Virus record (IMG/VR): IMGVR_UViG_3300023179_000017
Location: 24,711 to 88,710 of that record
Reading direction: 5' to 3' (one strand)
Length of the DNA stretch: 64,000 nt
Source of the DNA: a virus
Positions 10,201 through 60,869 of this stretch are shown here, in pieces. How positions within the stretch are numbered: the first letter of the stretch is position 1; each line of letters starts with the position of its first letter. Below the pieces are notes generated by a model. The model was not told where the DNA came from and ran no database searches. It saw only the letters and a program-made list of their open reading frames with translations. The translations under genes and the position numbers were made by a program.

Positions 10201-11108
10201 CTTGGACTGCAAGGACTTCGGCAGCAGACAATAACTGGCAAAGCGTATGCTGGTCTAAAGAAAAAACTTTATTTGTAGCTGTTGCTGGATCTGGAACCAA
10301 TAACAGAGTCATGACATCTCCAGACGGTATTGCTTGGACTGCAAGGACTTCGGCACAAGACAATAATTGGACATCGGTGTGTTGGTCGCCAACCGCCAAT
10401 GGTACTGGTCTTTTTGTGGCAGTATCAAATGGTGGAACCAATAGGGTTATGACATCCCCTGATGGTATCAACTGGACAGTAAGAACATCGTCTATCACCA
10501 CATATTGCGTGTGCTGGTCGGCAGAAGTGGGATTGTTTGTGGCTGCTGGATTTAATAGCATGGCCACATCTCCAGACGGTATTAACTGGACTTTAAGAAA
10601 TCCAGCAGCGATCGCTGCGGGGGCTTTCGTATCTGTCTGCTGGTCAAAAGAACTTGGGCTCTTTTGTGCCTTCCCATCTGCAACGTCAAATGGAAAAGTG
10701 GTCACATCACCAGACGGTATCAACTGGACTGCAAGAATGTCACAACAAGATGTATTTTTCCAATCACAGTTTTTTGGAAATGGTATCGCATGGTCTCCAG
10801 GCGTAGGTCGTTTCGTCCAAGTTGGTTTGTATGCTAACATGAGCGCAATAGTTTCAAACGTCTATATGGCAACACCCGCTTTCAGTTTAGCTGCTGGCAC
10901 CTATACAGGAACTCAGTCAGTTACACTTAGCGTGGCAAATTCTGGGGCAACAATTTACTACACAACCGACGGTAGTACGCCAACAACGTCGTCTACGGTA
11001 TATTCGGGGGCTATTTCTGTACCAAGCAGCAGAACCATAAAAGCGATTGCAGTTAAATCGGGATACCCAGATTCAACTATCGCCTCGGCTGCTTATACAA
11101 TTAACTAG
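4254..11108 (+). CDS. giant adhesin/fibre-like protein: Ig-like domains, Asp-box beta-propellers, C-terminal CHB_HEX_C/Fn3-associated domain
   Basis: TISAQP...YQWQRSTD...YQYRCVVS Ig repeats; dozens of S(P/S/T)DGxxWT Asp-box repeats; C-terminal ATPAFS...TIYYTTDGSTPT...IKAIAVK. Confidence 0.8.
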   Translation: MKRRLVLIKKAASGNLSPVITISAQPTNQSTSDGNASFSVTASVTEGATLSYQWQRSTDAGTTFSALSGETSNSLSLSSITVLSDQYQYRCVVSATGGAASVNSSSATLSVVPAITVSAQPQASTTSEALGTSSFSVTASASVGGTISYQWQRSTDGTSFSNLSGETNSSLSLSSLTYATNNQNQYRCVVSGNYNASSVTSSAAVLTVYDSTTAMATWTSATLSGSYGGLTYAKELGLFVAVGGSTTRASVSNDGTNWSDTTGAVVNLQTVAWSPELGMFAAVGNIGGIATSYDGYNWTQRTSPTTNNLKRVRWIPEKGFFLACSTAVSASNKFVKSTDGITWTGFSGPSTEAVYDFDYAPSLNSFFALGYSSNKIFTSSDGETWTTSASTMPSSGTWYAIKWSSQKSLFVAGAWDGGYLATSPDGANWTTRTKVDTTQSGVTAIDYSPELGYFAMSINGNAGYNRVHISPDGINWTGKISSSAANWDVCWSSDVGKFVCIGGSGFTATSTSVYSASNVIKLTAFTLPSTYRNDTASSSYIATASIASGSISYQWEKSTNSGVSFSSVAGATAGTLTLTQTERNAAVDGSHFYRLKMTSATAKYSPVYAGYFVPSANDAIYYVSNWSSSSLTNQNWYSICYAKELGLFVAVSSTGTNRIAVSNNGTTWTELTGQAASAYALNYVAWSPTLGMFVAVGSSGSIFTSYDGYNWTQRTSPTTSNQLYTVKWIAEKSFFLITSNSAGTANKILKSTDGITWTGYSSLSTTALSDFDYSPSLDLIVVQVYGASNFITSSDGQNWSSVSVGSGTNRNWDGIKWSASQGKFVATSSNSNSVATSTDGTNWTIVSTGVSLNKIDYSPEFNLYVSNTVNTGGSTKVWSSPDGVTWTARGPSLGTSVTFRNILWVPDYKKFYAISQDGAQLTSATVSDPENVIKLSSFSLPTITYRNNTANTTYVTTSTIASGSISYQWQLSTNSGSTFSDVAGATSSTLTLSQADRNAALDAGNYVYRLKMTSATAKYSPVYAGYYDARVQENNIYALNNYNLGSISDSSWAGLVWSSKRGVFVTASFSGNDKIAVSANGLNWQYVNTDTSGATITPGNAELVYSEEKDLFVQSGPSSYVYTSTDGLNWTQRASSTTQTLASGAYSPSLGLFVYVSRTATSNVVVTSSNGTTWSNSSTGVSQAMWGVAWSPTLGLFAAVGDNGTIITSTNGTSWTTRTSPNTNAYKSIAWSPTLGMFAAVSNGGTNRVMTSTDGITWTARTSAAETYAWRRIIWVSDLGMFVAGSESTGVSCVMYSANGTSWTLSAINNRSTTSSVTGLAWSSELKRLGQVGFYGTGVRNYATADIYTNKTTVAGFTALPKLTTTNYLSSTADVTLSSTALVSDGSSPSYQWQRSSDNGSTWADLSEKTSANLVLTDAESETASTSNYKYRVKVLNGTNNLISTTFSVVVQSDGVYAVNNWTVSSPGDRYWCGVAWSPKLGLFAAVSYADASSATTLQRVRIGISKDGVNWTYPTYWSTSGFFPNDILWVGGSVNMFVVVGQVCILTSPDGINWTSRKNTNMLIWETAAYSSTQGIVAVFNGTYAANAVLKSTNGITWTTSAGLGFTQAMWGIAWSPSLSLFVMVGAGGRIMSSPDGTTWTQRTSNTTNTLTSIAWSPELSLFVAVANTGTSRVVTSPDGINWTTRTSAAETYSWRKVIWVSDLGLFIAGAQTTVANNLMYSSDGINWSIASMSPSATAAWRVPMAWSPELKRLLVLSQSTTQNAVGTAALSADIFAGKTSYMSITAAPSNYETWLDNTASTTLTAAASVSTGATPSYQWQRSSDNGTNWSDLAGQTSTSLVLTDAETETASTNSYKYRFSASSAGISNSPVVSDKVSLTVRSTTKDYCVENWTMYSAANSNQLRSVVWAPSLSLFCAIGDSGTNNRAQTSPDGITWTVRTTPSAANNNWQGLAWSPELSLFVAVAGSGTNNRVMTSPDGITWTARTSAADNNWQSVCWSKEKTLFVAVAGSGTNNRVMTSPDGIAWTARTSAQDNNWTSVCWSPTANGTGLFVAVSNGGTNRVMTSPDGINWTVRTSSITTYCVCWSAEVGLFVAAGFNSMATSPDGINWTLRNPAAIAAGAFVSVCWSKELGLFCAFPSATSNGKVVTSPDGINWTARMSQQDVFFQSQFFGNGIAWSPGVGRFVQVGLYANMSAIVSNVYMATPAFSLAAGTYTGTQSVTLSVANSGATIYYTTDGSTPTTSSTVYSGAISVPSSRTIKAIAVKSGYPDSTIASAAYTIN
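10140..10355 (+). repeat. near-identical 84-nt duplication with 132-nt period (one propeller blade)
   Basis: 10140-10223 vs 10272-10355 differ only at a10200/g10332. Confidence 0.85.
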
Positions 11109-11169
11109 CACTTCGACTAAGCCTGTTTATTAGGTAAAATAAATTAACAGCTATCTCTTGAGATACAAT

Positions 11170-11204
11170 CCTCTCGTCAAGACCTGATCGATCTTGGCGA
11201 GGGG
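11170..11204 (+). terminator. 13-bp stem-loop without a U-tract (terminator or mRNA 3' stem)
   Basis: cctctcgtcaaga / tcttggcgagggg, 62 nt after the stop of the giant gene. Confidence 0.4.
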
Positions 11205-11259
11205 GCTGGGAAATTAAACAAACAGTATCAAAACCGATAGATGGGCATAAGGAATCATT

Positions 11260-11691
11260 ATGGCCTATAAACCGCCTAGCCAGAACATCATTGATAACGA
11301 GACTGGAGCAATACCGAGCTCTGAGGCGGTATTTGAGGCCTTACGACAAAAGGTAGATGTCACAAGTGGTTACGATATCAACCCCCAATTCTATAACGCT
11401 GGAAGCGTTACCGGGAGCTTTGCCGTAGATTTTGCCTTAGGCCCGGTTCAGCAGGTCACTTTATCCGCAAGTGGCGAGCACCAAGCCTCCTTTAGTAACC
11501 CAGTTCTAGGCGGCGTATATATGCTTAAAATCGTCCACGATGGGTTAAGCGGAACGATTAGCTGGCCTGAGACCGTCAGGTGGCCCGCAGAAGGGGAACC
11601 CACCCTAAGCGCCTCCTCAGGCACTATAGACCTCGTTAGCTTTGTCTACGATGGCAGCGATTACTTTGGTTCCTATTCCTTAGGTTATTGA
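11260..11691 (+). CDS. small fibre-associated beta-domain protein
   Basis: SD AAGGA; VDFALGPVQQVTL...FSNPVLGGVYMLKIVHDG...W...IDLVSFVYDG matches the internal domain of 782..3943. Confidence 0.75.
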   Translation: MAYKPPSQNIIDNETGAIPSSEAVFEALRQKVDVTSGYDINPQFYNAGSVTGSFAVDFALGPVQQVTLSASGEHQASFSNPVLGGVYMLKIVHDGLSGTISWPETVRWPAEGEPTLSASSGTIDLVSFVYDGSDYFGSYSLGY

Positions 11692-11800
11692 TCGCTCAAC
11701 TACTCTGGTAAATACTCCGATAAGAAGTACACGCCCACTTCTACTCTCTCGAGTCCGCCGATTAGCTGGCTGACTAACACATTAAACAAAAGGTAAAACT

Positions 11801-12502
11801 ATGAAATACTTAATGGCCCTACTTATAGGGACTTTTGCGCTTTCTCCTGAATATCAAAAAGGCTACGAAGAAATCCACGGCACTGGCAAATATACAAGGG
11901 CGCAGCTTGAAGAGGCGGAGCCTAAAATCAGAATGGCAGAACAAAATCTTCAAACGCTAGAAGACGTCGCTATTCAGTCGAACCTTGCTCTACGAACCAT
12001 CTTCTCGGTTGCAGTTAAAAACCTACACCGAAAAGGATATACACGAACAGCAAGAGAAATCGAATCTGGCTGGGAAGAACGAGACGGCGAGATAGTCAGA
12101 CTTGCCTATAGAGGTGAAAGAAACATCGGGGATTTTGAACCGCTATCGAAATGGCTTGCTGACGCATACGATAAAATCGAATCGAAGTTAGGATATCAAC
12201 TATGCCTAGCGTTACGCCTGTCAGATATCAAAACCATCAACTTCGGTCTTGTCGTTGTATTTAGGCCATGTAAGTATGGCGAGGAAGAATTTAAGAAGCA
12301 TTTTATTCATGATGAAAAATACCGAGGGCTTGCTCCGGTAGTCGCCTACTGGACGACTATTGTGGCTTGTTCGTTTGGTACTTACGGGATTGGATATTTC
12401 TTTATCTGCTCTCCGATAGGAATGATAGTGGAGCTTGGAGTAGATAAAAAAATAGCGCCGTATCTGGCCCCTAAAATTTATAATCTTGCTTGTGAGGAAT
12501 AA
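11801..12502 (+). CDS. putative exported protein
   Basis: N-terminal hydrophobic signal-like segment; C-terminal hydrophobic Cys-containing region. Confidence 0.7.
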   Translation: MKYLMALLIGTFALSPEYQKGYEEIHGTGKYTRAQLEEAEPKIRMAEQNLQTLEDVAIQSNLALRTIFSVAVKNLHRKGYTRTAREIESGWEERDGEIVRLAYRGERNIGDFEPLSKWLADAYDKIESKLGYQLCLALRLSDIKTINFGLVVVFRPCKYGEEEFKKHFIHDEKYRGLAPVVAYWTTIVACSFGTYGIGYFFICSPIGMIVELGVDKKIAPYLAPKIYNLACEE

Positions 12503-12706
12503 ATGACAAGAGAACAATGTCTCGACAGACTCGATGCCATACAACGTGCATTAGAGTTTTTCAAAAACAAAGAAAACTACGAAATTGGCGAAGTCATAAG
12601 CTCGGTCGAAATGCGAGGAATAGAAACGGCCAAAGAAGCCTTAGACGAAGTTTTAAAACTAAGGCTTTATTTGGTATCGATTGCTTTTCCAGAAGGTAAA
12701 CTGTGA
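12503..12706 (+). CDS. hypothetical protein
   Basis: 67 aa, abuts the upstream stop. Confidence 0.6.
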   Translation: MTREQCLDRLDAIQRALEFFKNKENYEIGEVISSVEMRGIETAKEALDEVLKLRLYLVSIAFPEGKL

Positions 12707-12801
12707 TGGACCCTATCGTAGTAGAGCTGTTCGCGCTTGGAGTTTTTATGGTTTTGGTAACGCTTATCATGGTTGCCATTTATGGGGAATTTAAAAAATG
12801 A
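12706..12801 (+). CDS. 31-aa hydrophobic peptide; not in ORF track
   Basis: MDPIVVELFALGVFMVLVTLIMVAIYGEFKK; TGATG overlap upstream and ATGA overlap downstream. Confidence 0.55.
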   Translation: MDPIVVELFALGVFMVLVTLIMVAIYGEFKK

Positions 12802-13202
12802 AATACAAAATATTGAAAGACGGCCTTGTGCAAGGCGGGTCAGCTCAATACCTGTATGACGAAGACGGACAAATATTCTGGGAGGCGAGCATTAAAGTGG
12901 GGATGGGTTTTTTAGCTAAAACCTATTCTAAAAAGGGTACCCTTCTTTTAGAGGACCCCGACTTAATGCTTTCTGAAAACCTAAAAGAAGGCATGGAGCA
13001 TATCTTTGGCCCCGTCCTTATTAAAACCATTAAGCGTGGGGAAGACGGGCTTATGGAATGTCTCATCAGCGTCGAAGGCGGGGCTATAGAAGGTCCCGTC
13101 TTTGTCGACTACTCAGACCACTATATCAATCCTCGGCACGCTGAAATCGTAGCGAAGGTATCCGGCCTTACCCTAAATATTAAACTGGTGCCTGAAGAAT
13201 GA
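12798..13202 (+). CDS. hypothetical protein
   Basis: 134-aa ORF in a translationally coupled chain. Confidence 0.7.
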   Translation: MKYKILKDGLVQGGSAQYLYDEDGQIFWEASIKVGMGFLAKTYSKKGTLLLEDPDLMLSENLKEGMEHIFGPVLIKTIKRGEDGLMECLISVEGGAIEGPVFVDYSDHYINPRHAEIVAKVSGLTLNIKLVPEE

Positions 13203-13208
13203 TATAAT
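13200..13208 (+). promoter_or_regulatory. extended -10 promoter TGATATAAT
   Basis: same 9-mer as at 4018; upstream of SD GGGGAG and rmlB. Confidence 0.7.
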
Positions 13209-13240
13209 TCAAAAAACCTTAAATTTGGGGGAGCGTACAA

Positions 13241-14218
13241 ATGAAGTACATGGTCACCGGCGGTCACGGCTTTATTGGATCAAACCTTTGTAGGCTCCTT
13301 CTAGAACAAAATAAAGATATCGTTGTTGTCGATTCCCTCACCTACGCCTCAAACCAAGCCTACTTAAAGAATTGGGCCAAAGAGAATAATAAAAAGTTTG
13401 AAGAAGAAATCCTAGATATCAGAGACCACGTTTCTGTCGCAAGGATGATGCAAAAACATAAGCCCGATGTCATTTTTCATTTAGCCGCTGAAAGCCATGT
13501 TTGCCGAAGCATCTCTGGGCCCAAAGACTTTGTCACAACAAACGTTCTAGGCACCTTTCATTTGATTGAAGAGTTTCGGCAGCTTTGGGGAGATAACGCT
13601 TCTAAAAAGTTTGTTCACGTTTCAACTGATGAGGTCTACGGGGAGCTTGAGCTAAACGAGCCGCCTTTTTGTGAATATACTCCAATCAAACCTAGAAGCC
13701 CCTATTCCGCCACAAAAGCCGGAAGCGATCACATCGTCCAGTCTTACTTTCACACCTACGGTGTTTCGACCATCATTACGAATTGCTCGAACAACTTTGG
13801 TCCCAACCAGCATAAAGAAAAACTAATTCCTGCAACCATTCAACGCCTTCATAGAAATAAACCTGTAAGGCTTTATGGCAACGGCCAGAATATCCGCGAC
13901 TGGCTCTGGGTGGAAGACCATGCAAGAGGCCTTATGCTTCTTGCTGAAAAAGGAACGCCTGGTCAAAAGTATTGCATTGGGGGTGAGTGTGAAAAAACTA
14001 ACCTCCAAATTATCAACGCTGTCTTTGACGCTATGGCTACAAGATTTGGAAAATTAGAACTTACTATTGAATTTACAAACGACAGGCCGACAGATGATAA
14101 AAGATATGCTATTAATTGCGACAGACTAAAAGCACTGGGCTGGGCCCCGTCCAGCAATTTAAAAGAAAATCTCTTGAAGACAGTCGATTATTATTTGGTA
14201 GAATTTAAACGGGGTTGA
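13241..14218 (+). CDS. rmlB: dTDP-glucose 4,6-dehydratase
   Basis: VTGGHGFIGSN, DSLTYAS, HLAAESHV, HVSTDEVYG, PYSATKAGSD, TNCSNNFGP, GQNIRDWLWVEDH, DKRYAI. Confidence 0.93.
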   Translation: MKYMVTGGHGFIGSNLCRLLLEQNKDIVVVDSLTYASNQAYLKNWAKENNKKFEEEILDIRDHVSVARMMQKHKPDVIFHLAAESHVCRSISGPKDFVTTNVLGTFHLIEEFRQLWGDNASKKFVHVSTDEVYGELELNEPPFCEYTPIKPRSPYSATKAGSDHIVQSYFHTYGVSTIITNCSNNFGPNQHKEKLIPATIQRLHRNKPVRLYGNGQNIRDWLWVEDHARGLMLLAEKGTPGQKYCIGGECEKTNLQIINAVFDAMATRFGKLELTIEFTNDRPTDDKRYAINCDRLKALGWAPSSNLKENLLKTVDYYLVEFKRG

Positions 14219-14266
14219 GTCAGCGCTTCATTTAACATTAACCGTGTTAAGAGAGAGCAAAGAACT

Positions 14267-14797
14267 ATGGAGTGCCGTGATACAACCCCAATCATCAACT
14301 GCTACACACTCAAGAGAGAAGTCTACAACGACCCAAGAGGGCACTTCTCAGAGCTCTTTCGAGCTTGTGACTTCGATGAGAAGTTCGTCCAAAGAAACGT
14401 CTCCCTATCTAAAAAGAATGTTCTAAGAGGGATGCACACCATGACTAGGCAACCCCAAGGAAAGCTTGTGACCTGTGTCTATGGCAGTGTGTGGGATGTG
14501 GTTTTTGACGCAAGGCCCATGAGCCCCACCTTTATGAAAGGATATGCAATCGAGCTAGATCACAAGAAGCTAAACGCTATCTACGTGCCGCCAGGCTGCC
14601 TACACGGATTTTTCACGCTTTCAGATATCGCAGTCGTGGAGTATGATTGCACTACTTATTACCAACAAAAATTTGACGGGGGTGTTAAATGGACTTCTTC
14701 GGAAATCAAAAAACTTTTTCCACCGAGTATCAATCCGGTTTTGAGTTCTAAAGATGATGGGCTTCCATCTCTTCAGGAATTTTTAAGATCAAAATGA
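14267..14797 (+). CDS. rmlC: dTDP-4-dehydrorhamnose 3,5-epimerase
   Basis: DPRGHFSE, NVSLSKKNVLRGMH, QGKLVTCVYGSVWDVVFDAR, YVPPGCLHGF, LSSKD. Confidence 0.92.
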   Translation: MECRDTTPIINCYTLKREVYNDPRGHFSELFRACDFDEKFVQRNVSLSKKNVLRGMHTMTRQPQGKLVTCVYGSVWDVVFDARPMSPTFMKGYAIELDHKKLNAIYVPPGCLHGFFTLSDIAVVEYDCTTYYQQKFDGGVKWTSSEIKKLFPPSINPVLSSKDDGLPSLQEFLRSK

Positions 14798-15831
14798 TAC
14801 CACTTCTAAGACCAGATTTTCCAAGTCTTGATTTAGTAAACCAGTATTTTTCGTCTTGCTACGACAAGAAGATATTTACTAACTTTGGCTCCGTCTTTGA
14901 TGAGTCCGTAAAACAACTTTCAAAACTAATGAACGGGGAAGCGCTTCCCTGCACTTCAGGAACGACAGCTATTCAAGCCGCTCTTTCTGTTATGTCAGCT
15001 AAAGGAAAAAGAGTCGCTATCCCAGACTACACCCACTCAGGAACGATGCTTGCTGTAATTGGCGCACAAGCTACTCCAGTTCTTTTTGCCGTCAATCCTA
15101 AAACTTGGGTCATTTCAATTGATGACTTAAAAGCAAACTTTGACCAATACGACATGGTCGTTGTGGTTTCTCCCTTTGGTTATGAAATTGATTTCCAAGC
15201 TTTTGAAACATTATCGTATGAATTAAAAAAACCCATCGTTTACGACATGGCAGGATGCTTTGGGAGCTTCCCAGATACCATTAACCCCAGAGCTTATTCT
15301 TTTCATGCCACAAAAAACTTTGCGGTCGGTGAAGGGGGATGCCTTGTTCTTCCTGACACCAAAATGTGGGAGCACGCTAGAAAAATTATCAACTTTGGAA
15401 CGAACCTAGACAGATCCCTTTTTAGTGATGTGGGCTTTAATGGAAAGGTAGATGAGCTTCGATGCGCTATTATTTTAGCTATGCTCCACGAAGAGAACTT
15501 GTCGAAAGTGTGGGCCAGGATCAAGAACAAAAAAGCAACGCTTCAGTTCTACCAAGAGCAACTAAAGGGGGTTGTACCTGAAGGAGAGAAATACACTTCT
15601 CTTTGTGTGGTGGGCGGCGTTCCTGCTAAAGAGCTGGAAGAGCACTGCCTTAAAAACGACATCATTAGTAAATCCTACTACCCACTTCTTTCTAAGATGC
15701 CAGGTCTTGCGCACATCGAACGGGTAACTACGAGCGGCCCTGAAATGGAAAAGTGCCTTGCACTTCCGTCTGATGTTTCAATCGCGGAAGCTTACGAAGT
15801 CGTTGAGTGTATATCCGAGTATCGTCCTTAA
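14794..15831 (+). CDS. vioA: DegT/DnrJ-family sugar aminotransferase (VioA-like)
   Basis: SGTTAIQAAL, IVYDMAGCFG, PLP-Lys motif SFHATKNFAVGEGG; N-terminus with TNFG typical of the VioA subgroup; adjacent to vioB-like gene. Confidence 0.75.
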   Translation: MIPLLRPDFPSLDLVNQYFSSCYDKKIFTNFGSVFDESVKQLSKLMNGEALPCTSGTTAIQAALSVMSAKGKRVAIPDYTHSGTMLAVIGAQATPVLFAVNPKTWVISIDDLKANFDQYDMVVVVSPFGYEIDFQAFETLSYELKKPIVYDMAGCFGSFPDTINPRAYSFHATKNFAVGEGGCLVLPDTKMWEHARKIINFGTNLDRSLFSDVGFNGKVDELRCAIILAMLHEENLSKVWARIKNKKATLQFYQEQLKGVVPEGEKYTSLCVVGGVPAKELEEHCLKNDIISKSYYPLLSKMPGLAHIERVTTSGPEMEKCLALPSDVSIAEAYEVVECISEYRP

Positions 15832-16376
15832 ACTAGTTCAAGAACGCCTTTTTTTCTTTCTTTCTTTTCTTCGGCAGGATTTCCCCAAGCAAACATCCAA
15901 GGAGATATCTTTTGATTAGCTCTGGTCTGGCTCATGGCCCCAAGAACCGAGCCCTCCCCAAAGTGGGTTCCCGGCATCACGCAACAGTGGGCTGTGATGT
16001 GGGAATGGTCTTCCATGACGATTGGGGCGTAATAGACATTGGTAAATTCTTTAGGGTTTTGAGGACCAATTAAGTAGTCCCCTGAGAAATTATCAGAAGA
16101 GGAAATAAGGGTAGAACCAAAACTAATCGTGCAGTTATCGCCTATCCGAATCCCCCCGCCACAGGATAGGGTCACACGGGAGGCGATGTGGATATTGCTA
16201 CCTATTTTTAAATATCCTTTTAAACAAAGTAGGATACAGCCAGCATCGATTCTAACATTACTACCTAGCTCAATCTGTTCAGCCCCCATGACGATAACGC
16301 TTCTATCTACAAGGACTTTCTCCCCTATTCGTTTAAAACCACACAGAAAGAGTTCTTCTTTAGTTAAAAAGGCCAT
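15828..16376 (-). CDS. vioB: hexapeptide-repeat sugar N-acyltransferase (VioB-like)
   Basis: MAFLTKEEL..GFKRIGEKV...IELGSNVRID...IHIA...SSDNFSGDYL.GP..PKEFTNV follows the VioB pattern; start set at the ATG at 16376. Confidence 0.75.
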   Translation of the reverse strand: MAFLTKEELFLCGFKRIGEKVLVDRSVIVMGAEQIELGSNVRIDAGCILLCLKGYLKIGSNIHIASRVTLSCGGGIRIGDNCTISFGSTLISSSDNFSGDYLIGPQNPKEFTNVYYAPIVMEDHSHITAHCCVMPGTHFGEGSVLGAMSQTRANQKISPWMFAWGNPAEEKKERKKGVLELV

Positions 16377-16426
16377 AGGTAATCTATTTTGGTTACGCAC
16401 CCTTAATGGTATCTTATTTAGTATAT

Positions 16427-17164
16427 ATGAGCAAAATATGCGTAGTCACATTGGGGTTTATGAATTGGCGTGTAATGGCTAGTTCCTTTAAACAGCTTTA
16501 TCAAACCAAGATTTTAAATTGGGAGCACCACGTTTTAGACCAGCACTACCCACTTAATGAAAAAGAAAACCGAGATAGCCTAAAGGCCATGTGTAAGGAC
16601 TACGGAGCTATCTTACATGACGCTGGAAAAAACTTAGGCCTCCACGAAGGGGTCAACTACTTAATTAGACAATCAAAACCAGATATCGTCATTGGATATG
16701 ACCCAGACTCTTTCCCCAATAGAATTTGCTGGGATGAAGCCCTGACCAAAGTCATTGATGAGAATGTGGTCTGGTCCACACTAGCAAACCCACGAACAAT
16801 GGGAGATATTAAAGCAAGAGGATATACAGAGTTTACCTCTAATGGAGTAAAGCTCTGGAAGACCAAAACGGCCATTACAAACTCAGTTTGCGCTTGGTCC
16901 GTTCCTTGGTTAGAATCAGTAGGATTTGTTTCTGAATCTAGGCCGTTTTACGGGCATCTAGAAACTACCATGTTTGGTAGGCTAAAAAACAAAAGTTGGG
17001 TTGTACTTCCTGAATACAGCGAATCTGATCACTTACGGCACGACCACGACAAAGACTACGCGCTCTACAAGTGGGCTCATGCCATCTTAAGAATCTGGGA
17101 CGGTGACTTTAAAAGCTGGCTCGAAGCTGGAAAACCGCACGAAGAAAAAATAAAAATAAGTTAA
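16427..17164 (+). CDS. GT-A (GT2-like) glycosyltransferase
   Basis: KICVVTLG, KNLGLHEGVNY, DxD (YDPD); start may be 16406 or 16427. Confidence 0.6.
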   Translation: MSKICVVTLGFMNWRVMASSFKQLYQTKILNWEHHVLDQHYPLNEKENRDSLKAMCKDYGAILHDAGKNLGLHEGVNYLIRQSKPDIVIGYDPDSFPNRICWDEALTKVIDENVVWSTLANPRTMGDIKARGYTEFTSNGVKLWKTKTAITNSVCAWSVPWLESVGFVSESRPFYGHLETTMFGRLKNKSWVVLPEYSESDHLRHDHDKDYALYKWAHAILRIWDGDFKSWLEAGKPHEEKIKIS

Positions 17165-17173
17165 GGAGAAAGC

Positions 17174-17515
17174 ATGAATCCTACACCCGAACAATGGGGA
17201 ACAGTTGTCGTTAATTTAACCAAGGGCGAACTGGGGATTTTAGCTGCTGTTGGAATTGCCGTTCAATTTTTGATGCTATTATTAAAAGGCCCCTTAGGAG
17301 AAAAAGCAGGTAAGTGGAGGCTTATGGCGGTCTCTGGGCTTACAATGGTGGGCTGTGTACTCGCTCTAAGAACGCAGGGAATGGACTGGGCGTCTATTTT
17401 AGCCCACTCTTCTACCCTTGCTGCATCACAAGTTTTTATTCATCAAATTTTTAAACAAAGCTCTGAACAGCCTGTTAATGAGGTGGCAGAGCCAAAAAGA
17501 AGAAAAAGAAAATGA
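17174..17515 (+). CDS. holin-like membrane protein
   Basis: SD AAGGAG; 2-3 hydrophobic helices; basic C-terminus PKRRKRK. Confidence 0.55.
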   Translation: MNPTPEQWGTVVVNLTKGELGILAAVGIAVQFLMLLLKGPLGEKAGKWRLMAVSGLTMVGCVLALRTQGMDWASILAHSSTLAASQVFIHQIFKQSSEQPVNEVAEPKRRKRK

Positions 17516-17850
17516 ACGACTTATTTAAGGAGCTGGTTTTTGATGTGGTCATAAAAGAAGCGATTAGGCGTCTTTTTTTAGCAGTTCCGTTTCTAGAAAT
17601 GGGGCCAATTGGATACATTGTAAGCCTTCTTTTGACCCGATTTGCTGATAGCCTTTATGAGTATCAAAAGACGGTTGTTCGGTTTTACAAGTTTGAGTTT
17701 GTTAATTCCAAGAATCAAAAACAATTTGATCAAGAAATGAAAAACTTGCAAACATTACAAAAAAACCCAAATGCCACACCAGAGGAAATAAATGAAGCCA
17801 TTCAAAAAGCTAAAGAACGCTTGGCCGATCTTGTTCGTTATTCTAGCTAG
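17512..17850 (+). CDS. hypothetical protein, possibly i-spanin-like
   Basis: N-terminal hydrophobic stretch plus coiled coil; overlaps the downstream lipoprotein gene. Confidence 0.45.
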   Translation: MNDLFKELVFDVVIKEAIRRLFLAVPFLEMGPIGYIVSLLLTRFADSLYEYQKTVVRFYKFEFVNSKNQKQFDQEMKNLQTLQKNPNATPEEINEAIQKAKERLADLVRYSS

Positions 17851-18133
17851 TTGTTCAACAACTGTAACAATTCCTGATGTGGAGTGGTGCACTTCTACTG
17901 GAAACCACGGGGCTATATGCCAGAACTCTTCTTCAGATACCAACCGTACCCTAACTGATAAAGAGTGGATTGATTTTTTAGAAAATGGGCCCGCACTTTG
18001 TACTTCTTCGAAAGACTTTTCAAGAATTAAGACTGCTATCCAGCAGCTCTGCAATGAAAACTCCAAATGCAAATTTGAGACGTTGAAGGCAACTTTTAAA
18101 AGGCTTGATAAACTTAGTTCTCGAAACCGTTAA
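17792..18133 (+). CDS. lipoprotein, o-spanin (Rz1)-like
   Basis: lipobox ILASC, additional Cys residues, overlaps the 3' end of the previous gene. Confidence 0.55.
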   Translation: MKPFKKLKNAWPILFVILASCSTTVTIPDVEWCTSTGNHGAICQNSSSDTNRTLTDKEWIDFLENGPALCTSSKDFSRIKTAIQQLCNENSKCKFETLKATFKRLDKLSSRNR

Positions 18134-18845
18134 AGCCTTCTGCCAAATGCTCGACAGAGTAGAACTTAAGGCCATTTCTAAACATCTCCATAGATAAGGA
18201 CAGTGATCCACCAGGGCCAGTCTTTCCACCTCTTGGAAACACAGGACCACCCGAAACTTCGTGGTGTCCAAAAATGTTTTCTATTTTAAACCTATCGTGC
18301 GGGTCGTTTGCTTGAAGCCAAACTAAAAGCGACCAGAGCGCTCTTTCTTGTTCGATACTAAACGTATGATAGTAGCCAGGCTCACATCCGTAAGAGCCTT
18401 CTACTTTTCTAACTTCATACTGGGGAACGATAATTCCGTTTTTATTTTTATAAAGGCCATTTCGGTGCGGCTCTACTTTTCCTGCCCCACAAAGAGATAT
18501 CCCGATGAGTTTTGAAGAGAGGCTCTTTCCTAACGACGGCCAGTAGCTTTGGCCGGCATGATATCCCCATTCATTTAAAGAGTGGGCTTGGACGAGTTTA
18601 CCGTCCCTACTAATACACAAGAACGTATACTCATCAGATATACCAGCTTGCACAGCGTCGAGAGCGTCTTGAAGACCTTTCTGGCTTGAGCCTCCGGTTG
18701 CGTGAATAATAGCCCCTGCCGGATATCCGTCGGCGTAAAGTCCGCGGGTCGGCATTGTTTCACGTGGAACAATGGCTTTAGGGTGCCACAAAAACAAGTG
18801 CCCAGGCTCATCATCCGTAGGTCGATGCTTTTCTTTTTTCGACAT
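18114..18845 (-). CDS. N-acetylmuramoyl-L-alanine amidase (Amidase_2) fold, third Zn ligand apparently lost
   Basis: AIIHATGG, YTFLCISRDG, GYHAG, IGISL, IFGHHEV; KTGPG in place of KxDPG/KxCPG. Confidence 0.75.
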   Translation of the reverse strand: MSKKEKHRPTDDEPGHLFLWHPKAIVPRETMPTRGLYADGYPAGAIIHATGGSSQKGLQDALDAVQAGISDEYTFLCISRDGKLVQAHSLNEWGYHAGQSYWPSLGKSLSSKLIGISLCGAGKVEPHRNGLYKNKNGIIVPQYEVRKVEGSYGCEPGYYHTFSIEQERALWSLLVWLQANDPHDRFKIENIFGHHEVSGGPVFPRGGKTGPGGSLSLSMEMFRNGLKFYSVEHLAEGFNGFEN

Positions 18846-18871
18846 AGTTTAAAAAATTAAACTAGCGCGAA

Positions 18872-19909
18872 CTAACCCCACATTTTTTGTAAGATATCTT
18901 TTCGAAGAACGTTTACTTTTTCTAAGGTCAGGGTGTCTTGAACAAATTCCCAGCCCTCTTGGGCAAGTTTTAAGGTGTCTACTTCACCTCGCATAACTAA
19001 ATCGAGTTTATCCGCAAAGTCTTTTTGGTCCTTGTAGTTGATAATACCAGGCCTTCGCCACTCTTCCCAATCTGGACCCAAACACGCAGCGCCCGCATGA
19101 ATGCCCTCAATCCAAGCAATGTTGGACTTAGAGTGGTTGAATGGACAATTCCAAAGGGGAACAAACACCAGGCTCGGATTAAAATTATTAAGGGCTTTCC
19201 AATAATCAACGGGATCTAGTGGATTGGTAAGCTTTAACTGTTCTATACTAAATCCCTCAATCGACAACATTTGTTCGACAGTGTACCAAAAGTGATGGCC
19301 CACAAAATTAATCGACCAATCTTTGAAGTGTCTGGCATAGGCGTGCTTTAAAGCTGCCGTATATACCCACAAATCTTTGTCATGCGTGTTGCTGCCTCGC
19401 CACAAAATCATCTTATTTTGTTTAGTTGTTGGGGTTCTGCCCACCGCAAAGGCTTGATTATAGGCATTTGGAATTACTTGTATTTTGTCCGGGTTTGAAC
19501 TGCTTTTAATCTGGTTTAACACCCAGCGCATTCTATTTGCAAGCGCTGCAGTAGAAACCGAGACATGGTCTGCCGTATCAATCATCCGTCCCACAAGTTG
19601 TCTTACCGAAGATTGCGAATAAAGCTTAAAAGCCCTATTTTCAAAGGGAACTGCAAACAGGTCGTCATCGTAATCAATCCAAACCTTTTTCCCATTAGCT
19701 TTTGCCATATTCATGATGTTTAGGTGCGCCCCCGAATAGGGGCGCTGCATAAAGATTGCGTCCACATAAGAAAGCTTCACCCAATCAATCGAATCTCCCT
19801 TTTCCATATAAAAGTCACATTCTTTCATTAAAGGAGAAAGAGGGCCGAAAGCTCTATAAAACGAGGTTGAATCAGTCGGGTGCGGGGCAAAAACTAGAAG
19901 GGTTTTCAT
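18872..19909 (-). CDS. GT-B (GT4-like) glycosyltransferase
   Basis: FYRAFGPL, IFMQRP, WIDYDDDLF, VSVSTAAL, VIPNA, ILWRGS, FNHSKSNIAWIE; start set at MKTLL. Confidence 0.75.
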   Translation of the reverse strand: MKTLLVFAPHPTDSTSFYRAFGPLSPLMKECDFYMEKGDSIDWVKLSYVDAIFMQRPYSGAHLNIMNMAKANGKKVWIDYDDDLFAVPFENRAFKLYSQSSVRQLVGRMIDTADHVSVSTAALANRMRWVLNQIKSSSNPDKIQVIPNAYNQAFAVGRTPTTKQNKMILWRGSNTHDKDLWVYTAALKHAYARHFKDWSINFVGHHFWYTVEQMLSIEGFSIEQLKLTNPLDPVDYWKALNNFNPSLVFVPLWNCPFNHSKSNIAWIEGIHAGAACLGPDWEEWRRPGIINYKDQKDFADKLDLVMRGEVDTLKLAQEGWEFVQDTLTLEKVNVLRKDILQKMWG

Positions 19910-19946
19910 GGTTTTTATTATATCATTTCTTAGATACAATACCTCT
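19910..19946. promoter_or_regulatory. back-to-back promoters for two apparently leaderless genes
   Basis: minus strand TGATATAAT (19925-19917) 7 nt before ATG 19909; plus strand TACAAT (19935-19940) 6 nt before ATG 19947; no SD on either side. Confidence 0.6.
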
Positions 19947-22310
19947 ATGCCAAAAACGCAAATTCAAAGCACGCAAGAAGTAAATGATGCGGAACTCCCT
20001 AGACTGGGTCTTGCGGCTAGATCCACTGACGCAGATATCGAAGGCCTAACCGATCAGGAGCTTGATTTCCCTTTAAGACTCTCGGCAGCCTTTCCAACTG
20101 CAAATTCAAGACTTTATATTAGAAGCTCTCTAATTGCCTCTGCTGACGGCTCTAAAAAAAGTGCGCCCCCCATCGCTTCTCAGATTTTTGATATCGCTGA
20201 CTCCTATATTGACTTTCAAACCAAAACCACAAGCGGGCCCATTTTAATTACCTGGCCGACGGTTACAAGCGGCCAATACATTAAAGCAGGCCTTACCCTC
20301 CTACCTAGCGGATTCATTCAAGTTATTTTTAGCCCCAGCGGTGCTACGAACTCCAGCACCTTACCAGCCAACCCAGGGACGTTATTTATTAACGGCGGTC
20401 AGCCTATTGGTTGGGTCAACCTGCAATCTACAGGAAGCGGATTTAAAACCGCCGATTCCGTTACCAATATTATTGAAGCAAGCGGCATCAACCGATTTGG
20501 AGTAGGCGGCGCACCTTCCGCCTCTGGCAACGCCAACGAAGTTCTTGAGAGATTAAAAGACTGGCACTTAAGTAGCGTTTATTCGTGGATGGATACCAAT
20601 GTCTTTTCTATCGATACCATCACTAAAGTAGATTCGGGAACTGCTACTTATGATGTCGCTTCTCAGAGCTACAAATTTCAAGCAGGACAAACCTTAATTT
20701 CTAAAAACTGCCTTGATGAAGATTTTAAATCAGAAGGCGTTGAAGTTCTTCAAGCAGAAGTCAGCGTTGTAAGAGACACAGCGCTTTCATCAGATAAAGT
20801 TGAGCTTTCAAGAGACGGTGTCAACTACGTGACGGTCACAACGTCCAAAGTTGGAAATGATACCCTTGTTGGCAACGCCACTTTTTCTGATCCAACTTAT
20901 CCTGAACAGCTTGTTGCAAATACCTCAAACAATATCAACCAAGCTTACACTTCTTTTAAAGTTACGTTTTCAAATCAAACGGTAAGTTCGATTGGTCTTT
21001 TCATGTACAGACTTGGAACACCGGCGGGTACACTCACTTTGCAAATCCGACCCGATAACGCTGGCGTTCCCTCAAATACTATTACTGCCACTTCTGCTGG
21101 CGTTTCAGCAGCCACACTTACCACTGGCTTAACTAGGTTTTCTTTTTCTGATGTTGCTCTAAACGGTGTCTATCATTTAATTTTGGTTGCAGATAATCAG
21201 TACTTAAATTCTGTAGTGCTTGGAACCACCAACGTAGGTTTGATGTCGAGCTCCTTAAGTTCTGGCATCTCTGGCACAAGCTCCAACGGAACGACTTGGG
21301 TTTCTGGCACCTTAGCTTATTCCTTCTCGGTAATGCCAAAACCAGAACTCTCTCAGTACCTAAATGAGAGCACAGTCTACAAACTTTTAGGCTCTGGTTC
21401 AGGCACAATTCGAGCACAGCAATTTACTATCACAGAAGCCATGGCGGTCGAGTATGTGACCTTAAGAACTACTCGGGCGGGAAGTGCAAACGGAAGCCTC
21501 TATGCTACGCTTGTTAAATCTGTTTCTAATAATCCTTCAAGCTCAAGCTTAGATATCTTATCTACTACTAGCTCTCGTCCTATCGCAAACAATGTAATGA
21601 ACTTATCGTTCCCCTCTCCGGTTCTTCTAACCCCGGGAAGTTACTTTTTAGTTTTCTATACAGATGCCACTTATAAAACAAATTTTAATACCAACACCAA
21701 CTACCTAGGGCTTTTAGGAAACTCGGTTGCTATAGCTGGGGTGGGGCTTGGAAAAGAAAGCACTACCGGAGATAGCTGGACGACGGTGCCGCCTCTTAGT
21801 TATTCCCTAGTTGGATACAAAAGAGATTTAAGAGTGAGAATCACCGCTAACGAAGGTGCGGTATTAGGATACGGGGTTCTTTACGGAGCAAAGACAGGTC
21901 TTGTGACCGGCGTCTTAAATAAAGAAACTCAGTGGGCCTCGATTAACCAAACGACATTTACTGTCAGTAAGTTCCTGCCCAGTTCCGATTTATTAAAAGT
22001 CTACGACACAAGCGGTCGATGTTTTGTATCTCCATTTTTTACTATTCAAGGACAACAGGTTATATTTCCAGCAGGTACTTTTACAGTAGCTGGTCCTATT
22101 GTATTTGACCAAACACAAGGAAGTAGTTTCGATAATTCCGATAGAAACGCTTCCTTACTAGCTGCTAATTTCTTAGGCTCGTTAGATGGAAACATCGACA
22201 AGTCAGCTCCTGGACGGGGTATTCTATTAAGAGACCCCACAGGTCAGCTTTATGAAATCACAGTAAGAACTGGCGGAACAGGTTTTGATATCTACATGGT
22301 GACAGCGTGA
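19947..22310 (+). CDS. virion structural (tail/fibre-associated) protein
   Basis: Ser/Thr/Gly-rich beta protein with two similar modules (GTPAGTLTLQIRPDNAGVPS / GSANGSLYATLVKSVSNNPS); coupled to the collar genes. Confidence 0.65.
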   Translation: MPKTQIQSTQEVNDAELPRLGLAARSTDADIEGLTDQELDFPLRLSAAFPTANSRLYIRSSLIASADGSKKSAPPIASQIFDIADSYIDFQTKTTSGPILITWPTVTSGQYIKAGLTLLPSGFIQVIFSPSGATNSSTLPANPGTLFINGGQPIGWVNLQSTGSGFKTADSVTNIIEASGINRFGVGGAPSASGNANEVLERLKDWHLSSVYSWMDTNVFSIDTITKVDSGTATYDVASQSYKFQAGQTLISKNCLDEDFKSEGVEVLQAEVSVVRDTALSSDKVELSRDGVNYVTVTTSKVGNDTLVGNATFSDPTYPEQLVANTSNNINQAYTSFKVTFSNQTVSSIGLFMYRLGTPAGTLTLQIRPDNAGVPSNTITATSAGVSAATLTTGLTRFSFSDVALNGVYHLILVADNQYLNSVVLGTTNVGLMSSSLSSGISGTSSNGTTWVSGTLAYSFSVMPKPELSQYLNESTVYKLLGSGSGTIRAQQFTITEAMAVEYVTLRTTRAGSANGSLYATLVKSVSNNPSSSSLDILSTTSSRPIANNVMNLSFPSPVLLTPGSYFLVFYTDATYKTNFNTNTNYLGLLGNSVAIAGVGLGKESTTGDSWTTVPPLSYSLVGYKRDLRVRITANEGAVLGYGVLYGAKTGLVTGVLNKETQWASINQTTFTVSKFLPSSDLLKVYDTSGRCFVSPFFTIQGQQVIFPAGTFTVAGPIVFDQTQGSSFDNSDRNASLLAANFLGSLDGNIDKSAPGRGILLRDPTGQLYEITVRTGGTGFDIYMVTA

Positions 22311-29539: not shown

Positions 29540-30076
29540 ATGGCACTAACAAAAGTACAAAAAGAACTGGTAAAACCTGCTGATTCTTTAAATCCCGCTG
29601 GGGCTATTTTAATGTTTGCTGGTAGCGTTGCTCCAACTGGGTGGCTTCTTTGTGACGGGACCGAGTATTCAAAAACTCTATATCCAGACTTAGACGCTAT
29701 ATTATCAGTAGGCGGAACGTACCCACACGGCCAAACAAACGGCTCAGGTGGTGCTGGTACATCTCATTTTAAAGTGCCAGATTGTCGTGGAGTTTTTGTT
29801 AGAGGTGTCGGATCTCAAACCATAAGTGGAACTTCTTATACTGGTGCTCTTGGTACAAAACAGGGCGATCAGATGCAGGGGCATATTCACAAAACATCTA
29901 GCGTGGCTCAGGCGGGACTTGCTGGAGCAAACAACTATGGCACTGGGCCGTACCCCGTAAATAACACCGAACTAAGCTCTGCCGCCCCCGCATCGGACGG
30001 CACCAACGGCACGCCACGCACAGGTGCAGAGACTAGACCTGCAAACATAGCTTTAAACTACATCATCAAATACTAA
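29540..30076 (+). CDS. stand-alone tail-collar domain protein
   Basis: PAGAILMFAGSVAPTGWLLCDG...FKVPDCRGVFVRG...ETRPANIALNYIIKY. Confidence 0.85.
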   Translation: MALTKVQKELVKPADSLNPAGAILMFAGSVAPTGWLLCDGTEYSKTLYPDLDAILSVGGTYPHGQTNGSGGAGTSHFKVPDCRGVFVRGVGSQTISGTSYTGALGTKQGDQMQGHIHKTSSVAQAGLAGANNYGTGPYPVNNTELSSAAPASDGTNGTPRTGAETRPANIALNYIIKY

Positions 30077-59700: not shown

Positions 59701-60129
59701 TTAAATAAGTTTTGTTTCAGCATCTTTGTATTGTCGGCTTTCTAAAGGAACCCACCTTCCTTCGCAAACCCACTCAACGCCTTTGGTGGCTATCATTCGA
59801 GTAATAGCTTTGTAGCGTTTTTTACAGTAAAGACAGTTTGTTTTTCCACTTTTTAACACCATAGGTTTTACAAACTTTTCTGAGGGCTTTGAATGACACA
59901 AAAACCTCGGTGGCGTTTTAGCATCGCGGTAAGCAAGATGGATTATTTTCCCTTTTGGTTGTGACATTAAAAATAACTCGCTTGGTTTTGGTCGTATTTT
60001 CAAAGTATCCCCCTTTATTAGAAATGTTTGTGCGTTACGGTGAATAAAAACATGCTCTACTATGTTCTTATACCAATTTAAGAGTTCTCCCAAACTTCTA
60101 ACCAATCTGGTGTTTGTGTGAAAGAACAC
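59701..60129 (-). CDS. hypothetical protein with C-terminal Cys/His residues; true start may be 59967
   Basis: FLCH...NCLYC. Confidence 0.5.
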   Translation of the reverse strand: MFFHTNTRLVRSLGELLNWYKNIVEHVFIHRNAQTFLIKGDTLKIRPKPSELFLMSQPKGKIIHLAYRDAKTPPRFLCHSKPSEKFVKPMVLKSGKTNCLYCKKRYKAITRMIATKGVEWVCEGRWVPLESRQYKDAETKLI

Positions 60130-60869
60130 CCAAGTTTAGAAGTAATTGGCCTCTCCATATCATAGAATTCGTCTTCACAGAACTGGTGGTTAGGAAGAAT
60201 GATCCTTCCCCAATCTCTGACGGTGGTATTTCCAGAAGGGGCGCAGTGGTGGATAGTTGTTCCATTATTATTAAAAAGGTCTTGAGCGTTTTTAGCTAGC
60301 GTCTTAGCAAGCCAGCCTGTCGAGGTGGGAGTCACAGAATTGAGTGGAAGCCTAACAACCCCGTTTAGTTTTTGTATCTTTCCTGGAAAGGTACGTTCTG
60401 GTTTGTGTTTTCCGTAAAGAGAGCCAACTCGGATAATGACCCTATTGGGCAAATCTAAATTCAATATGATGTTTTCCATTTGAATTTTTTGCTTAGCATA
60501 TTCGCTTCGTGGGGTTGGGGTTTGAGATAAAGGGTTGTTGGGTTTCTTTTCATTAGCTGCGTAGTCGGTAGAAAAGAAAACGACCTTAGTTGATTTTGGA
60601 AGGCAGCAGTTTAAAAAAGCGGGGAAGTCTTGGTTGATGTATTTAGCGTCTTTATACGTGGGGGAAGTAGGCTTACATTCCTGTACGCTACCTCCCCCGA
60701 TGGCTACCCATACACAGTTAGGATAGAAAGCTTCTATTTTATTTATAATAGATAAATCTTTAACGTTGTCACCGTTTGATTGGGATAACAGAAGAGTCTC
60801 GTGTTCTTTAGTGAGCTCGCAAAGCAAGTCTTTACCTAAGTTCCCAGCACCGATAATTAAGTGTTTCAT
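60078..60869 (-). CDS. rmlD: dTDP-4-dehydrorhamnose reductase-like SDR
   Basis: IIGAGNLG, VFFSTDY, SEYAKQK (YxxxK), IIRVGSLYG, VTPT. Confidence 0.75.
   Translation of the reverse strand: MKHLIIGAGNLGKDLLCELTKEHETLLLSQSNGDNVKDLSIINKIEAFYPNCVWVAIGGGSVQECKPTSPTYKDAKYINQDFPAFLNCCLPKSTKVVFFSTDYAANEKKPNNPLSQTPTPRSEYAKQKIQMENIILNLDLPNRVIIRVGSLYGKHKPERTFPGKIQKLNGVVRLPLNSVTPTSTGWLAKTLAKNAQDLFNNNGTTIHHCAPSGNTTVRDWGRIILPNHQFCEDEFYDMERPITSKLGCSFTQTPDWLEVWENS

Follow-up and report, generated by a model that had tools for sequence, protein, structure and literature searches.

A predicted two-branch deoxy-sugar kit among the tail-fibre genes of a freshwater phage, with virion proteins as possible acceptors

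Which sugars would a bacteriophage make with enzymes encoded between its tail-fibre genes, and to what would it attach them? The question is raised by a gene block at positions 13,241 to 19,909 of a 64,000-nucleotide stretch of viral DNA, here called the window, which spans positions 24711-88710 of the 152,336-bp IMG/VR virus record IMGVR_UViG_3300023179_000017, a record that is complete according to CheckV. We found that six genes of the block and a seventh, distant one probably specify a kit in which a single 4,6-dehydratase serves two branches, one leading to L-rhamnose or its 4-epimer and the other to an N-acylated 4-amino-4,6-dideoxyhexose, together with two glycosyltransferases of the GT-A and GT-B folds (hereafter GT-A and GT-B). 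As to the acceptor, genomic context points to proteins of the phage's own virion.

Results

The dehydratase at the head of the pathway is RmlB (13241..14218, plus strand), a putative deoxythymidine diphosphate (dTDP)-glucose 4,6-dehydratase that scored 377.8 bits against the TIGR01181 equivalog cut-off of 365.1 and matched PF16363 with an E value of 1e-78. Homologues of RmlB occurred in 200 of 50,697 phage records, and the protein was 78% identical to its counterpart in a relative of 103,921 bp with terminal repeats (G001) and 69% identical to that of a Mu-like phage (G003, IMGVR_UViG_3300042560_002642). The next gene encodes an RmlC-family dTDP-4-keto-6-deoxyglucose 3,5-epimerase (14267..14797, plus strand; PF00908, 157.4 bits against a gathering cut-off of 27). 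It missed the TIGR01221 equivalog test narrowly (145.4 bits, cut-off 155.75), and its best matches in the Protein Data Bank (PDB) were all true RmlC 3,5-epimerases (6c46, E 3e-32), with the mono-epimerases ChmJ, NovW and EvaD ranking below them. Alignment to 6c46 and 23eg revealed that the catalytic residues are kept, namely His (in RGMH), Lys (GKLV), Tyr (YxC..Y) and Asp (SKD). These data bore out the original prediction, made from the letters of the window, that rmlB and rmlC lie at 13241-14797.

The rmlD gene that had been predicted at 60078..60869 (minus strand) proved to encode a short, divergent 4-ketoreductase of the RmlD family (263 amino acids), which exceeded the PF04321 (RmlD_sub_bind) cut-off of 27 with 55.2 bits and retained the GxxGxxG, STDY, YxxxK and TPTST motifs in an alignment to RmlD 1vl0; it did not pass the TIGR01214 equivalog test (44 bits against 224.05). 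Its identity to the corresponding proteins was 56% in G001, 50% in G003, 41% and 37% in two further Mu-like phages (G004 and G007), and 35% in L104. The enzyme would complete dTDP-L-rhamnose or 6-deoxy-L-talose, two products that sequence does not separate. The failure of the original prediction to see rmlA was confirmed as well: PF00483 had no match at E<=1 across the whole 152,336-bp genome, and this nucleotidyltransferase was lacking from five related phage genomes too. Because the phage is without rmlA, dTDP-glucose would be supplied by the host. RmlB would convert it to dTDP-4-keto-6-deoxy-D-glucose, from which RmlC and the distant RmlD-like reductase would make dTDP-L-rhamnose or its 4-epimer.

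On the second branch, an aminotransferase would aminate C4 of the RmlB product, giving a dTDP-4-amino-4,6-dideoxyhexose of the viosamine type, and an AntD-like enzyme would then N-acylate this amino sugar with an acetyl or hydroxyacyl group. The aminotransferase (14794..15831, plus strand) belongs to the DegT/DnrJ/EryC1 family of pyridoxal phosphate (PLP)-dependent sugar aminotransferases (PF01041, 116.7 bits against a cut-off of 19.8, E 1.8e-33), and its D151 and PLP lysine K174, the latter in an SxHxTK motif, were invariant in 42 homologues. Among solved sugar aminotransferases it had no close relative, its distance to C3 and C4 types being much the same (best match 3ju7, E 4e-15; mimivirus L136, E 1.6e-7), and it scored far under all equivalog cut-offs, such as those for DesI (64 against 650 bits) and for the WecE type (56 against 375). 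No FdtA-type 3,4-ketoisomerase was found in the genome, which speaks against a 3-amino sugar pathway, a reading that was also considered. Because the genome has no such isomerase and two types of N-acyltransferase for 4-amino-4,6-dideoxy sugars share one slot in these phages, amination at C4 is the best reading of the sequence; gluco and galacto configurations are not told apart by similarity.

The acyltransferase gene (15828..16400, minus strand, with a probable ATG at 16376) encodes a left-handed-beta-helix (hexapeptide) protein that matched the 3vbi/3vbn group of PDB entries at E 1.3e-26. Residues 10-189 aligned to residues 20-195 of 3vbi with about 38% identity over 180 amino acids, as estimated from the alignment, and the next matches reached only 1e-5. 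PMC6031040, citing Kubiak and Holden from 2012, identifies 3vbn as AntD, which carries out N-acylation in D-anthrose synthesis by Bacillus cereus. A VioB/NeuD/PglB-type enzyme was rejected, with a TIGR03570 score of 31.8 bits (cut-off 160.8) and no PglD_N domain present. The AntD-like gene lies on the strand opposite the aminotransferase gene in G001, G003 and G004 as well; the same slot is filled in L104 by a PglD/VioB-type protein with PglD_N and Hexapep domains. We also found AntD-like genes on viral contigs and in one megaphage where the rest of the kit is not present. In the work of Kubiak and Holden, AntD reportedly acylates dTDP-4-amino-4,6-dideoxyglucose, a D-gluco sugar, using 3-hydroxy-3-methylbutyryl-CoA. 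Since the phage enzyme is of the AntD and not the VioB type, an N-acetyl group is not established. The original prediction of VioA- and VioB-like enzymes making dTDP-N-acetylviosamine was therefore upheld in part: a DegT-family aminotransferase, a hexapeptide acyltransferase and a 4-amino-4,6-dideoxyhexose branch stood, while the acyltransferase is not of the VioB type, VioA specificity is not assignable by similarity, and the N-acetyl group and the gluco configuration are left as options.

We then consider how the two sets of enzymes are connected. RmlC was present in 10 and DegT in 12 of the 39 GT-B-bearing viral records examined, and each was found in five of the six closest records. Three records held RmlC without DegT (G011, G015 and G016) and three held DegT without RmlC (G006, G008 and G013), all six being at least 91% complete. 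That each branch occurs singly in other phages argues for two branches from the RmlB product and not one linear path. In a linear scheme the aminotransferase would use the RmlC product, the outcome would be an N-acylated 4-amino-4,6-dideoxy-L-hexose, and the RmlD-like protein would serve an unrelated function. This scheme would suit the contiguity of rmlB, rmlC and the aminotransferase gene, the last two of which overlap (14794 against 14797), as well as the RmlD-like gene lying 40 kb away, and similarity does not reveal the specificity of the aminotransferase. We nevertheless judge it improbable, for besides the existence of phages with DegT but no RmlC and the converse, a fibre gene splits rmlC from the aminotransferase gene in G001, the RmlD-like gene is kept in 5/5 kit-carrying phages and adjoins the kit in L104, and the substrate of AntD is said to be a D-gluco 4-amino sugar. 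A two-branch dTDP-sugar system in which one 4,6-dehydratase feeds both branches is, by contrast, well supported and in our judgement probable, and the pathway logic of the original prediction gained from the independent assortment of the branches in other phages.

Both candidate transferases were recognized mainly by fold. GT-A (16406..17164, plus strand; the start in homologues corresponds to the ATG at 16427) is a GT2-like protein that scored 22.5 bits against the PF00535 cut-off of 23.3 and had no match in a sequence search of the PDB. Its AlphaFold2 model (predicted local distance difference test score, pLDDT, 91.6) matched GT2, GT27 and TarP enzymes in Foldseek at E 6e-10 to 1e-7, and a DxD motif (D92-x-D94, in YDPDS) was invariant among its homologues. 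GT-B (18872..19909, minus strand), a GT4-like protein, matched phrog_7162 at E 4e-19; no Pfam family exceeded its threshold and a PDB sequence search gave chance matches only. Its model (pLDDT 95.9; predicted template modelling score 0.91) matched PglA, PimA, SenB, BshA and MshA at E 4e-11 to 1e-9 with template modelling scores of 0.6-0.73, and its neighbours in the ESM Atlas were consistent with a GT4-type fold. The two folds and the DxD motif thus agree with the GT-A and GT-B enzymes that had been proposed inside the block. The aminotransferase gene was followed by GT-A within 0.6-4 kb in 7/7 loci with room, and the closest GT-B homologues co-occurred with RmlB/RmlC. From this gene linkage to the aminotransferase and to rmlB/rmlC, respectively, GT-A is the likely amino-sugar transferase and GT-B a candidate rhamnosyltransferase.

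Single-sequence scans of IMG/VR with GT-B and with an 800-residue fibre protein gave no match, and relatives came from alignment-based scans. In all, 415 GT-B homologues were found in a large protein collection, nearly all of them unnamed metagenomic proteins and many encoded by contigs some 50 kb long, and 80 IMG/VR loci with a GT-B homologue were recovered. A search of 185,579 prokaryote species, with one genome each, gave 4 weak matches only, the best of them from a contig of 4.5 kb that had been binned with a Burkholderiales metagenome-assembled genome. The closest relatives of the aminotransferase (at least 31% identity) were likewise unnamed metagenomic proteins with automatic JGI (Joint Genome Institute) labels only, many of them on contigs of about 50 kb that carry GT-B homologues; 113 proteins were counted down to about 29% identity. 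GT-B and the aminotransferase hence appear to define large, old clades that are almost confined to viral or phage-sized metagenomic contigs.

The same kit was found in other phages. G001 holds the whole sugar set at 56-81% identity, in the order rmlB, rmlC, a 1702-residue fibre gene, a 351-residue gene, aminotransferase, AntD-like gene (opposite strand), GT-A, lysis genes, amidase, DnaJ and GT-B, with the RmlD-like gene far from the rest. When all open reading frames (ORFs) of the genome were compared with those of three complete or near-complete Mu-like phages of 40-51 kb (G003, G004 and G007), RmlB, RmlC, the RmlD-like reductase, the aminotransferase, GT-A and GT-B were common to all and the acyltransferase was shared with G003 and G004 only, so that the seven-gene set recurs in those two and 6/7 genes in G007. 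The other genes in common were the holin, spanin and amidase genes, to which G003 adds long fibre segments (30-71% identity); the remainder consisted of five other short ORF matches. Because these Mu-like phages have almost only sugar, lysis and fibre genes in common with the genome, we conclude from gene content that the seven putative sugar genes are inherited as a single system and travel, in company with lysis and fibre genes, among otherwise unrelated phage architectures.

The positions of the kit differ between these architectures. In G003, sugar genes follow Baseplate_J, Mu gp48 and a 470-residue protein, and rmlB-rmlC lie between terminase and portal; in L104 the kit, here adjoined by the RmlD-like gene, has a Mu-type portal gene on one side and genes for Mu-F, decoration and capsid proteins on the other. 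At the 80 GT-B loci, the neighbours seen most often were a large terminase (29 loci) and, directly upstream, an SPP1-type portal (19 loci). Some terminases adjoining GT-B genes at other loci contain intein domains (L080 and L058). G003 also carries a Tet_JBP, GNAT, GATase and ADDT operon (L100:15665-19110), probably a separate DNA-hypermodification system. In G001, the 351-residue gene (L095:3711-4766) had no Pfam match and no counterpart was noted in the window, and the DnaJ-type chaperone gene (DnaJ and DnaJ_C domains; L014:11035-11844), which lies between the endolysin and GT-B, is not found at that place in the window. Just upstream of rmlB, at 11801-13202, the window has two genes without family match, for a protein of 233 residues with a C-terminal hydrophobic segment and one of 134 residues; their G001 counterparts (58% and 49% identity) lie across the other side of the GT-B gene.

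Tail-fibre genes flank the block on both sides, as the original prediction held when it placed the block within the fibre region. The upstream ones (782-3943, 4254-11108 and 11260-11691, plus strand) have tail-fibre PHROG matches and encode candidate acceptors. Ser and Thr make up 28.6% of the 2284-residue fibre-like protein, and a fibre protein of 1053 residues has 42 Ser-Gly dipeptides. The 2284-residue protein (4254-11108) consists in part of about five internal repeats of some 390 residues, each matching one and the same G003 fibre segment; its similarity to a beta-propeller is weak, and a CHB_HEX_C_1 / Fn3_assoc domain lies at its C terminus. The downstream genes (19908-22310, 22307-25123, 25126-27285, 27288-29528 and 29540-30076, plus strand) likewise encode candidate acceptors; they have Collar and C1q domains and tail-fibre PHROG matches, and the corresponding fibre segments in G003 are 61-71% identical. 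A Phage Tail Collar domain together with a C-terminal C1q-type domain was seen in the fibre at 22307-25123 and in that of G001 (L095:4770-9878); the 1702-residue G001 fibre, with its Tail Collar domain, also matched BclA_C below threshold (28 bits; threshold 38).

Within the sugar interval, 17174-18845 is predicted to be a complete lysis cassette, whose holin- and spanin-like genes were absent from the original prediction. It begins with a holin-like small membrane protein (17174..17515, plus strand) that has one hydrophobic segment above the hydropathy threshold (residues 17-35), a second one discernible by eye, and a KRRKRK C-terminal tail. This is followed by an i-spanin-like protein (17512..17850, plus strand), with an N-terminal membrane anchor and then a helical region, which is 50-55% identical in G001 and G003, and by an o-spanin-like lipoprotein (17792..18133, plus strand) with a signal peptide and an ILASC lipobox, whose gene overlaps that of the i-spanin. 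The last gene encodes an N-acetylmuramoyl-L-alanine amidase (Amidase_2 endolysin; 18114..18845, minus strand; PF01510, 33.7 bits against a cut-off of 26). The minus-strand genes of the block are thus those for the acyltransferase, GT-B and the endolysin. A holin-like gene stands beside the sugar genes in G001, G003 and G004 too, and in G003 and G004 an amidase homologue adjoins the RmlD-like gene. In unrelated Mu-like phages the lysis cassette again accompanies the sugar genes, with 38-53% identity. Its spanin-like genes imply a host with an outer membrane, that is, a putatively Gram-negative one.

Near-identical DNA was present in freshwater and lake metagenomes of three studies from 2011-2019. 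Megablast of the block against the 50,697 phage records gave no match, and no cultured phage was similar at the DNA level. The large terminase of the genome has at most 31% identity to known terminases; these match only residues 372-851 of the 856-residue protein (55842-58412), and its first 370 or so residues had no match in the phage collection. A scan with the portal protein gave one distant relative only, without RmlB in a record that is 70% complete. Scans of 11000-20500 for sigma-70 promoters and terminators gave sites no more numerous than in shuffled sequence, and therefore allow no statement on operon structure.

Discussion

In the last steps of the proposed pathway, GT-A and GT-B would transfer both sugars to an acceptor within the infected cell, the likeliest acceptor being a protein, or several, of the phage's own virion and above all the Ser/Thr-rich tail fibres around the genes. 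We regard a virion protein, the target that the original prediction also proposed by analogy with giant viruses, as the best-supported one, at roughly even odds given the contextual nature of the evidence. It is favoured because the genes are embedded in structural modules of unrelated phages, because nearly phage-specific enzyme clades suit an acceptor carried by the phage better than hypervariable host polysaccharides, and because the enzymes are without membrane segments (none of the kit enzymes has one) and no flippase or polymerase was seen. The co-inheritance of the kit with fibre genes is further context in favour. The fuller reading, that an ancient, horizontally shared, phage-specific kit puts rhamnose and an anthrose- or viosamine-like acylated sugar on the phages' own fibres or heads in freshwater Gram-negative hosts, is somewhat more tentative.

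Several points weigh against it. The arguments about the acceptor are all contextual, and the virion glycan is a prediction from the genes. For the amino sugar, similarity gives the aminotransferase neither the C4 position nor the gluco configuration. The fibres have no collagen-like GXY repeats or other recognizable acceptor motif, and three genes of the block are transcribed opposite to the fibre genes. Sites downstream of tail-fibre genes are also a classic place for conversion and accessory genes. In phages of about 50 kb, GT-B stands beside RusA and an exonuclease-like gene, outside any structural operon, and the 19 loci with an adjacent portal may stem from a single group of related phages or from few such groups, and so not be independent. 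Lastly, the modules for lysis and for the receptor-binding parts of the fibres are host-specific, and co-inheritance with them could equally mean a host-directed function.

Such a function would be the remodelling of the host envelope, in which rhamnose and the acylated amino sugar are added during infection to the O-unit or core of lipopolysaccharide, or to capsule, S-layer, flagellin or pilin. Its effect could be the masking of receptors, superinfection exclusion, or keeping progeny from sticking to debris. The kit's company of fibre segments (30-71% identity), holin, spanins and endolysin fits this explanation, as does its dependence on host dTDP-glucose. Rhamnose and viosamine derivatives are typical of bacterial surface and flagellin glycans (PMC9614988, and PMC3927599 as cited there). 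Furthermore, the rmlB-rmlA-rmlC-rmlD genes of cultured Escherichia coli Justusliebigvirus phages lie in an early nucleotide-metabolism region by nrdAB, away from virion genes. We hold remodelling of the envelope to be a serious rival, though less likely than a virion target. Against it, GT-B and the aminotransferase belong to old clades in which cellular members are very rare, a pattern that differs from that of O-antigen genes newly acquired from a host; inspection revealed no Wzx, Wzy or Gtr-type membrane component and no membrane anchor; and the kit's placement with terminase, portal, head and baseplate genes suggests late expression, which would leave little time for the export of a polymer.

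DNA is the other acceptor that was weighed, with transferases that would glycosylate hydroxylated pyrimidines as in the T-even, RB69/DLP3 and ten-eleven translocation (TET)-associated systems. Phage GT-A and GT-B DNA glycosyltransferases that work with phage sugar-nucleotide enzymes are known (bioRxiv 10.1101/2023.12.21.572611; PMC13326640), a universal acceptor would account for a phage-specific transferase clade, and in G003, which also has the Tet_JBP operon, GT-B lies near RusA. The genome, however, has neither a member of the thymidylate-synthase family (PF00303, 0 matches) nor a TET/JBP protein (PF12851, 5.9 bits only). None of the 39 GT-B-bearing records held ThyS and 5 held Tet_JBP, and 20/25 near-complete genomes were without both of these routes to an acceptor hydroxyl. 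T4 beta-glucosyltransferase was outside the 50 best structural matches of GT-B, the 11 sampled members of the GT-B family were mostly acidic to neutral (isoelectric points 5.6-8.5), and neither of two papers on DNA glycosylation that were searched, bioRxiv 10.1101/2023.12.21.572611 being one, names rhamnose or dTDP-sugars. DNA hypermodification is accordingly, in our estimate, very improbable.

The virion-directed reading would have consequences beyond this genome. The kit itself would be a phage-encoded glycosylation system with a sugar chemistry and enzyme clades that have not been described for phages. To our knowledge, virion glycosylation has been shown for few phages only, those of mycobacteria, and never with a phage-encoded deoxy-amino-sugar pathway. 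Our search of the literature revealed no publication that deals with viosamine or anthrose pathways encoded by phages, or with rhamnose carried by their particles. If correct, the reading would provide the first described case, for a bacteriophage, of self-sufficient protein glycosylation with deoxy-amino sugars, and a bacterial-virus counterpart of mimivirus fibril glycosylation, so that the autonomous virion glycosylation of giant viruses would gain a direct parallel in bacterial viruses. Glycan coats on particles would be widespread among aquatic phages of Gram-negative bacteria, with effects on adsorption, on resistance to proteases and grazing, and on recognition by host and animal lectins. 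The analysis also defines two large, nearly phage-specific clades, those of the GT-B transferase and the DegT aminotransferase, and shows sugar, lysis and fibre genes moving jointly between unrelated phage architectures.

How the predicted system relates to known ones can be judged from five comparisons. Phage DNA glycosylation clusters (T4 alpha- and beta-glucosyltransferases, TET-associated glycosyltransferases, RB69/DLP3 arabinosylation) combine GT-A or GT-B enzymes with sugar-nucleotide enzymes as here, but for the acceptor hydroxyl they depend on a TET dioxygenase or a thymidylate-synthase homologue, and both are absent here and in most GT-B-bearing relatives. Cultured E. coli phages of the Justusliebigvirus/Phapecoctavirus group (phiWec187, LC739536.1) resemble the kit in encoding dTDP-L-rhamnose enzymes, with an RmlB that is about 45% identical; they differ in including rmlA, in having the operon beside nrdAB, and in lacking any homologue of the present aminotransferase, acyltransferase or GT-B. 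In phiWec187 the complete rmlB-rmlA-rmlC-rmlD operon (LC739536.1, 28735-31996; L111) directly follows nrdA/nrdB, and no paper on its function was found in the literature that was searched.

Mycobacteriophages offer the one demonstrated precedent among phages. Glycosylation of capsid and tail-tube proteins is reported for Che8, Corndog and Myrna (Freeman 2023, in the form in which PMC12619734 relates it). Soluble phage glycosyltransferases have there been shown to decorate the phages' own capsid and tail proteins, a role that is only proposed for the present phage, and lineage, actinobacterial hosts and transferase families all differ. The glycosylating mycobacteriophages are not known to encode a pathway for dTDP-sugars or amino sugars.

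In Bacillus anthracis and B. cereus, the anthrose pathway (aminotransferase AntC, N-acyltransferase AntD, transferase AntB) and rml genes serve to decorate the exosporium protein BclA. AntD is the closest solved relative of the phage acyltransferase (E 1.3e-26, about 38% identity), and some phage fibres end in C1q-type domains, with the weak BclA_C match in the G001 fibre as a further likeness. The decoration of BclA follows the logic proposed for the phage, in that rhamnose and an N-acyl viosamine derivative are placed on a fibre-like surface glycoprotein (PMC9614988). The phage system differs in that its fibres are without GXY repeats, neither an enoyl-CoA hydratase (AntA) nor an O-methyltransferase was seen near the genes, and its host is predicted to be Gram-negative. 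Extension of the BclA analogy to the acceptor was dropped, since the fibres are without those collagen-like repeats.

In its logic the kit matches mimivirus (APMV), in which the dehydratase R141 feeds both the epimerase/reductase L780, for rhamnose, and the aminotransferase L136 with the acetyltransferase N-L142, for N-acetylviosamine (Vio4NAc); both sugars go into the fibril glycans, and the cluster includes five glycosyltransferases (PMC9614988). The particle glycan has been demonstrated for mimivirus, while the phage kit is known here from its genes. The enzymes also differ: mimivirus prefers uridine diphosphate (UDP)-sugars, its epimerase/reductase is a bifunctional protein of plant type and its acetyltransferase is PglB-like, whereas the phage, with a bacterial host, has separate bacterial-type RmlB, RmlC and RmlD proteins and an AntD-type acyltransferase, and the two aminotransferases are only distantly related (E 1.6e-7). 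Yet the arrangement proposed for the phage is that of mimivirus. The product of one 4,6-dehydratase feeds an L-rhamnose branch and a branch to N-acylated viosamine, transferases are among the viral genes, the genes adjoin a gene for a fibre or fibril protein, and the enzyme that completes rhamnose is encoded elsewhere in the genome, as L780 in mimivirus and as the RmlD-like reductase in the phage.

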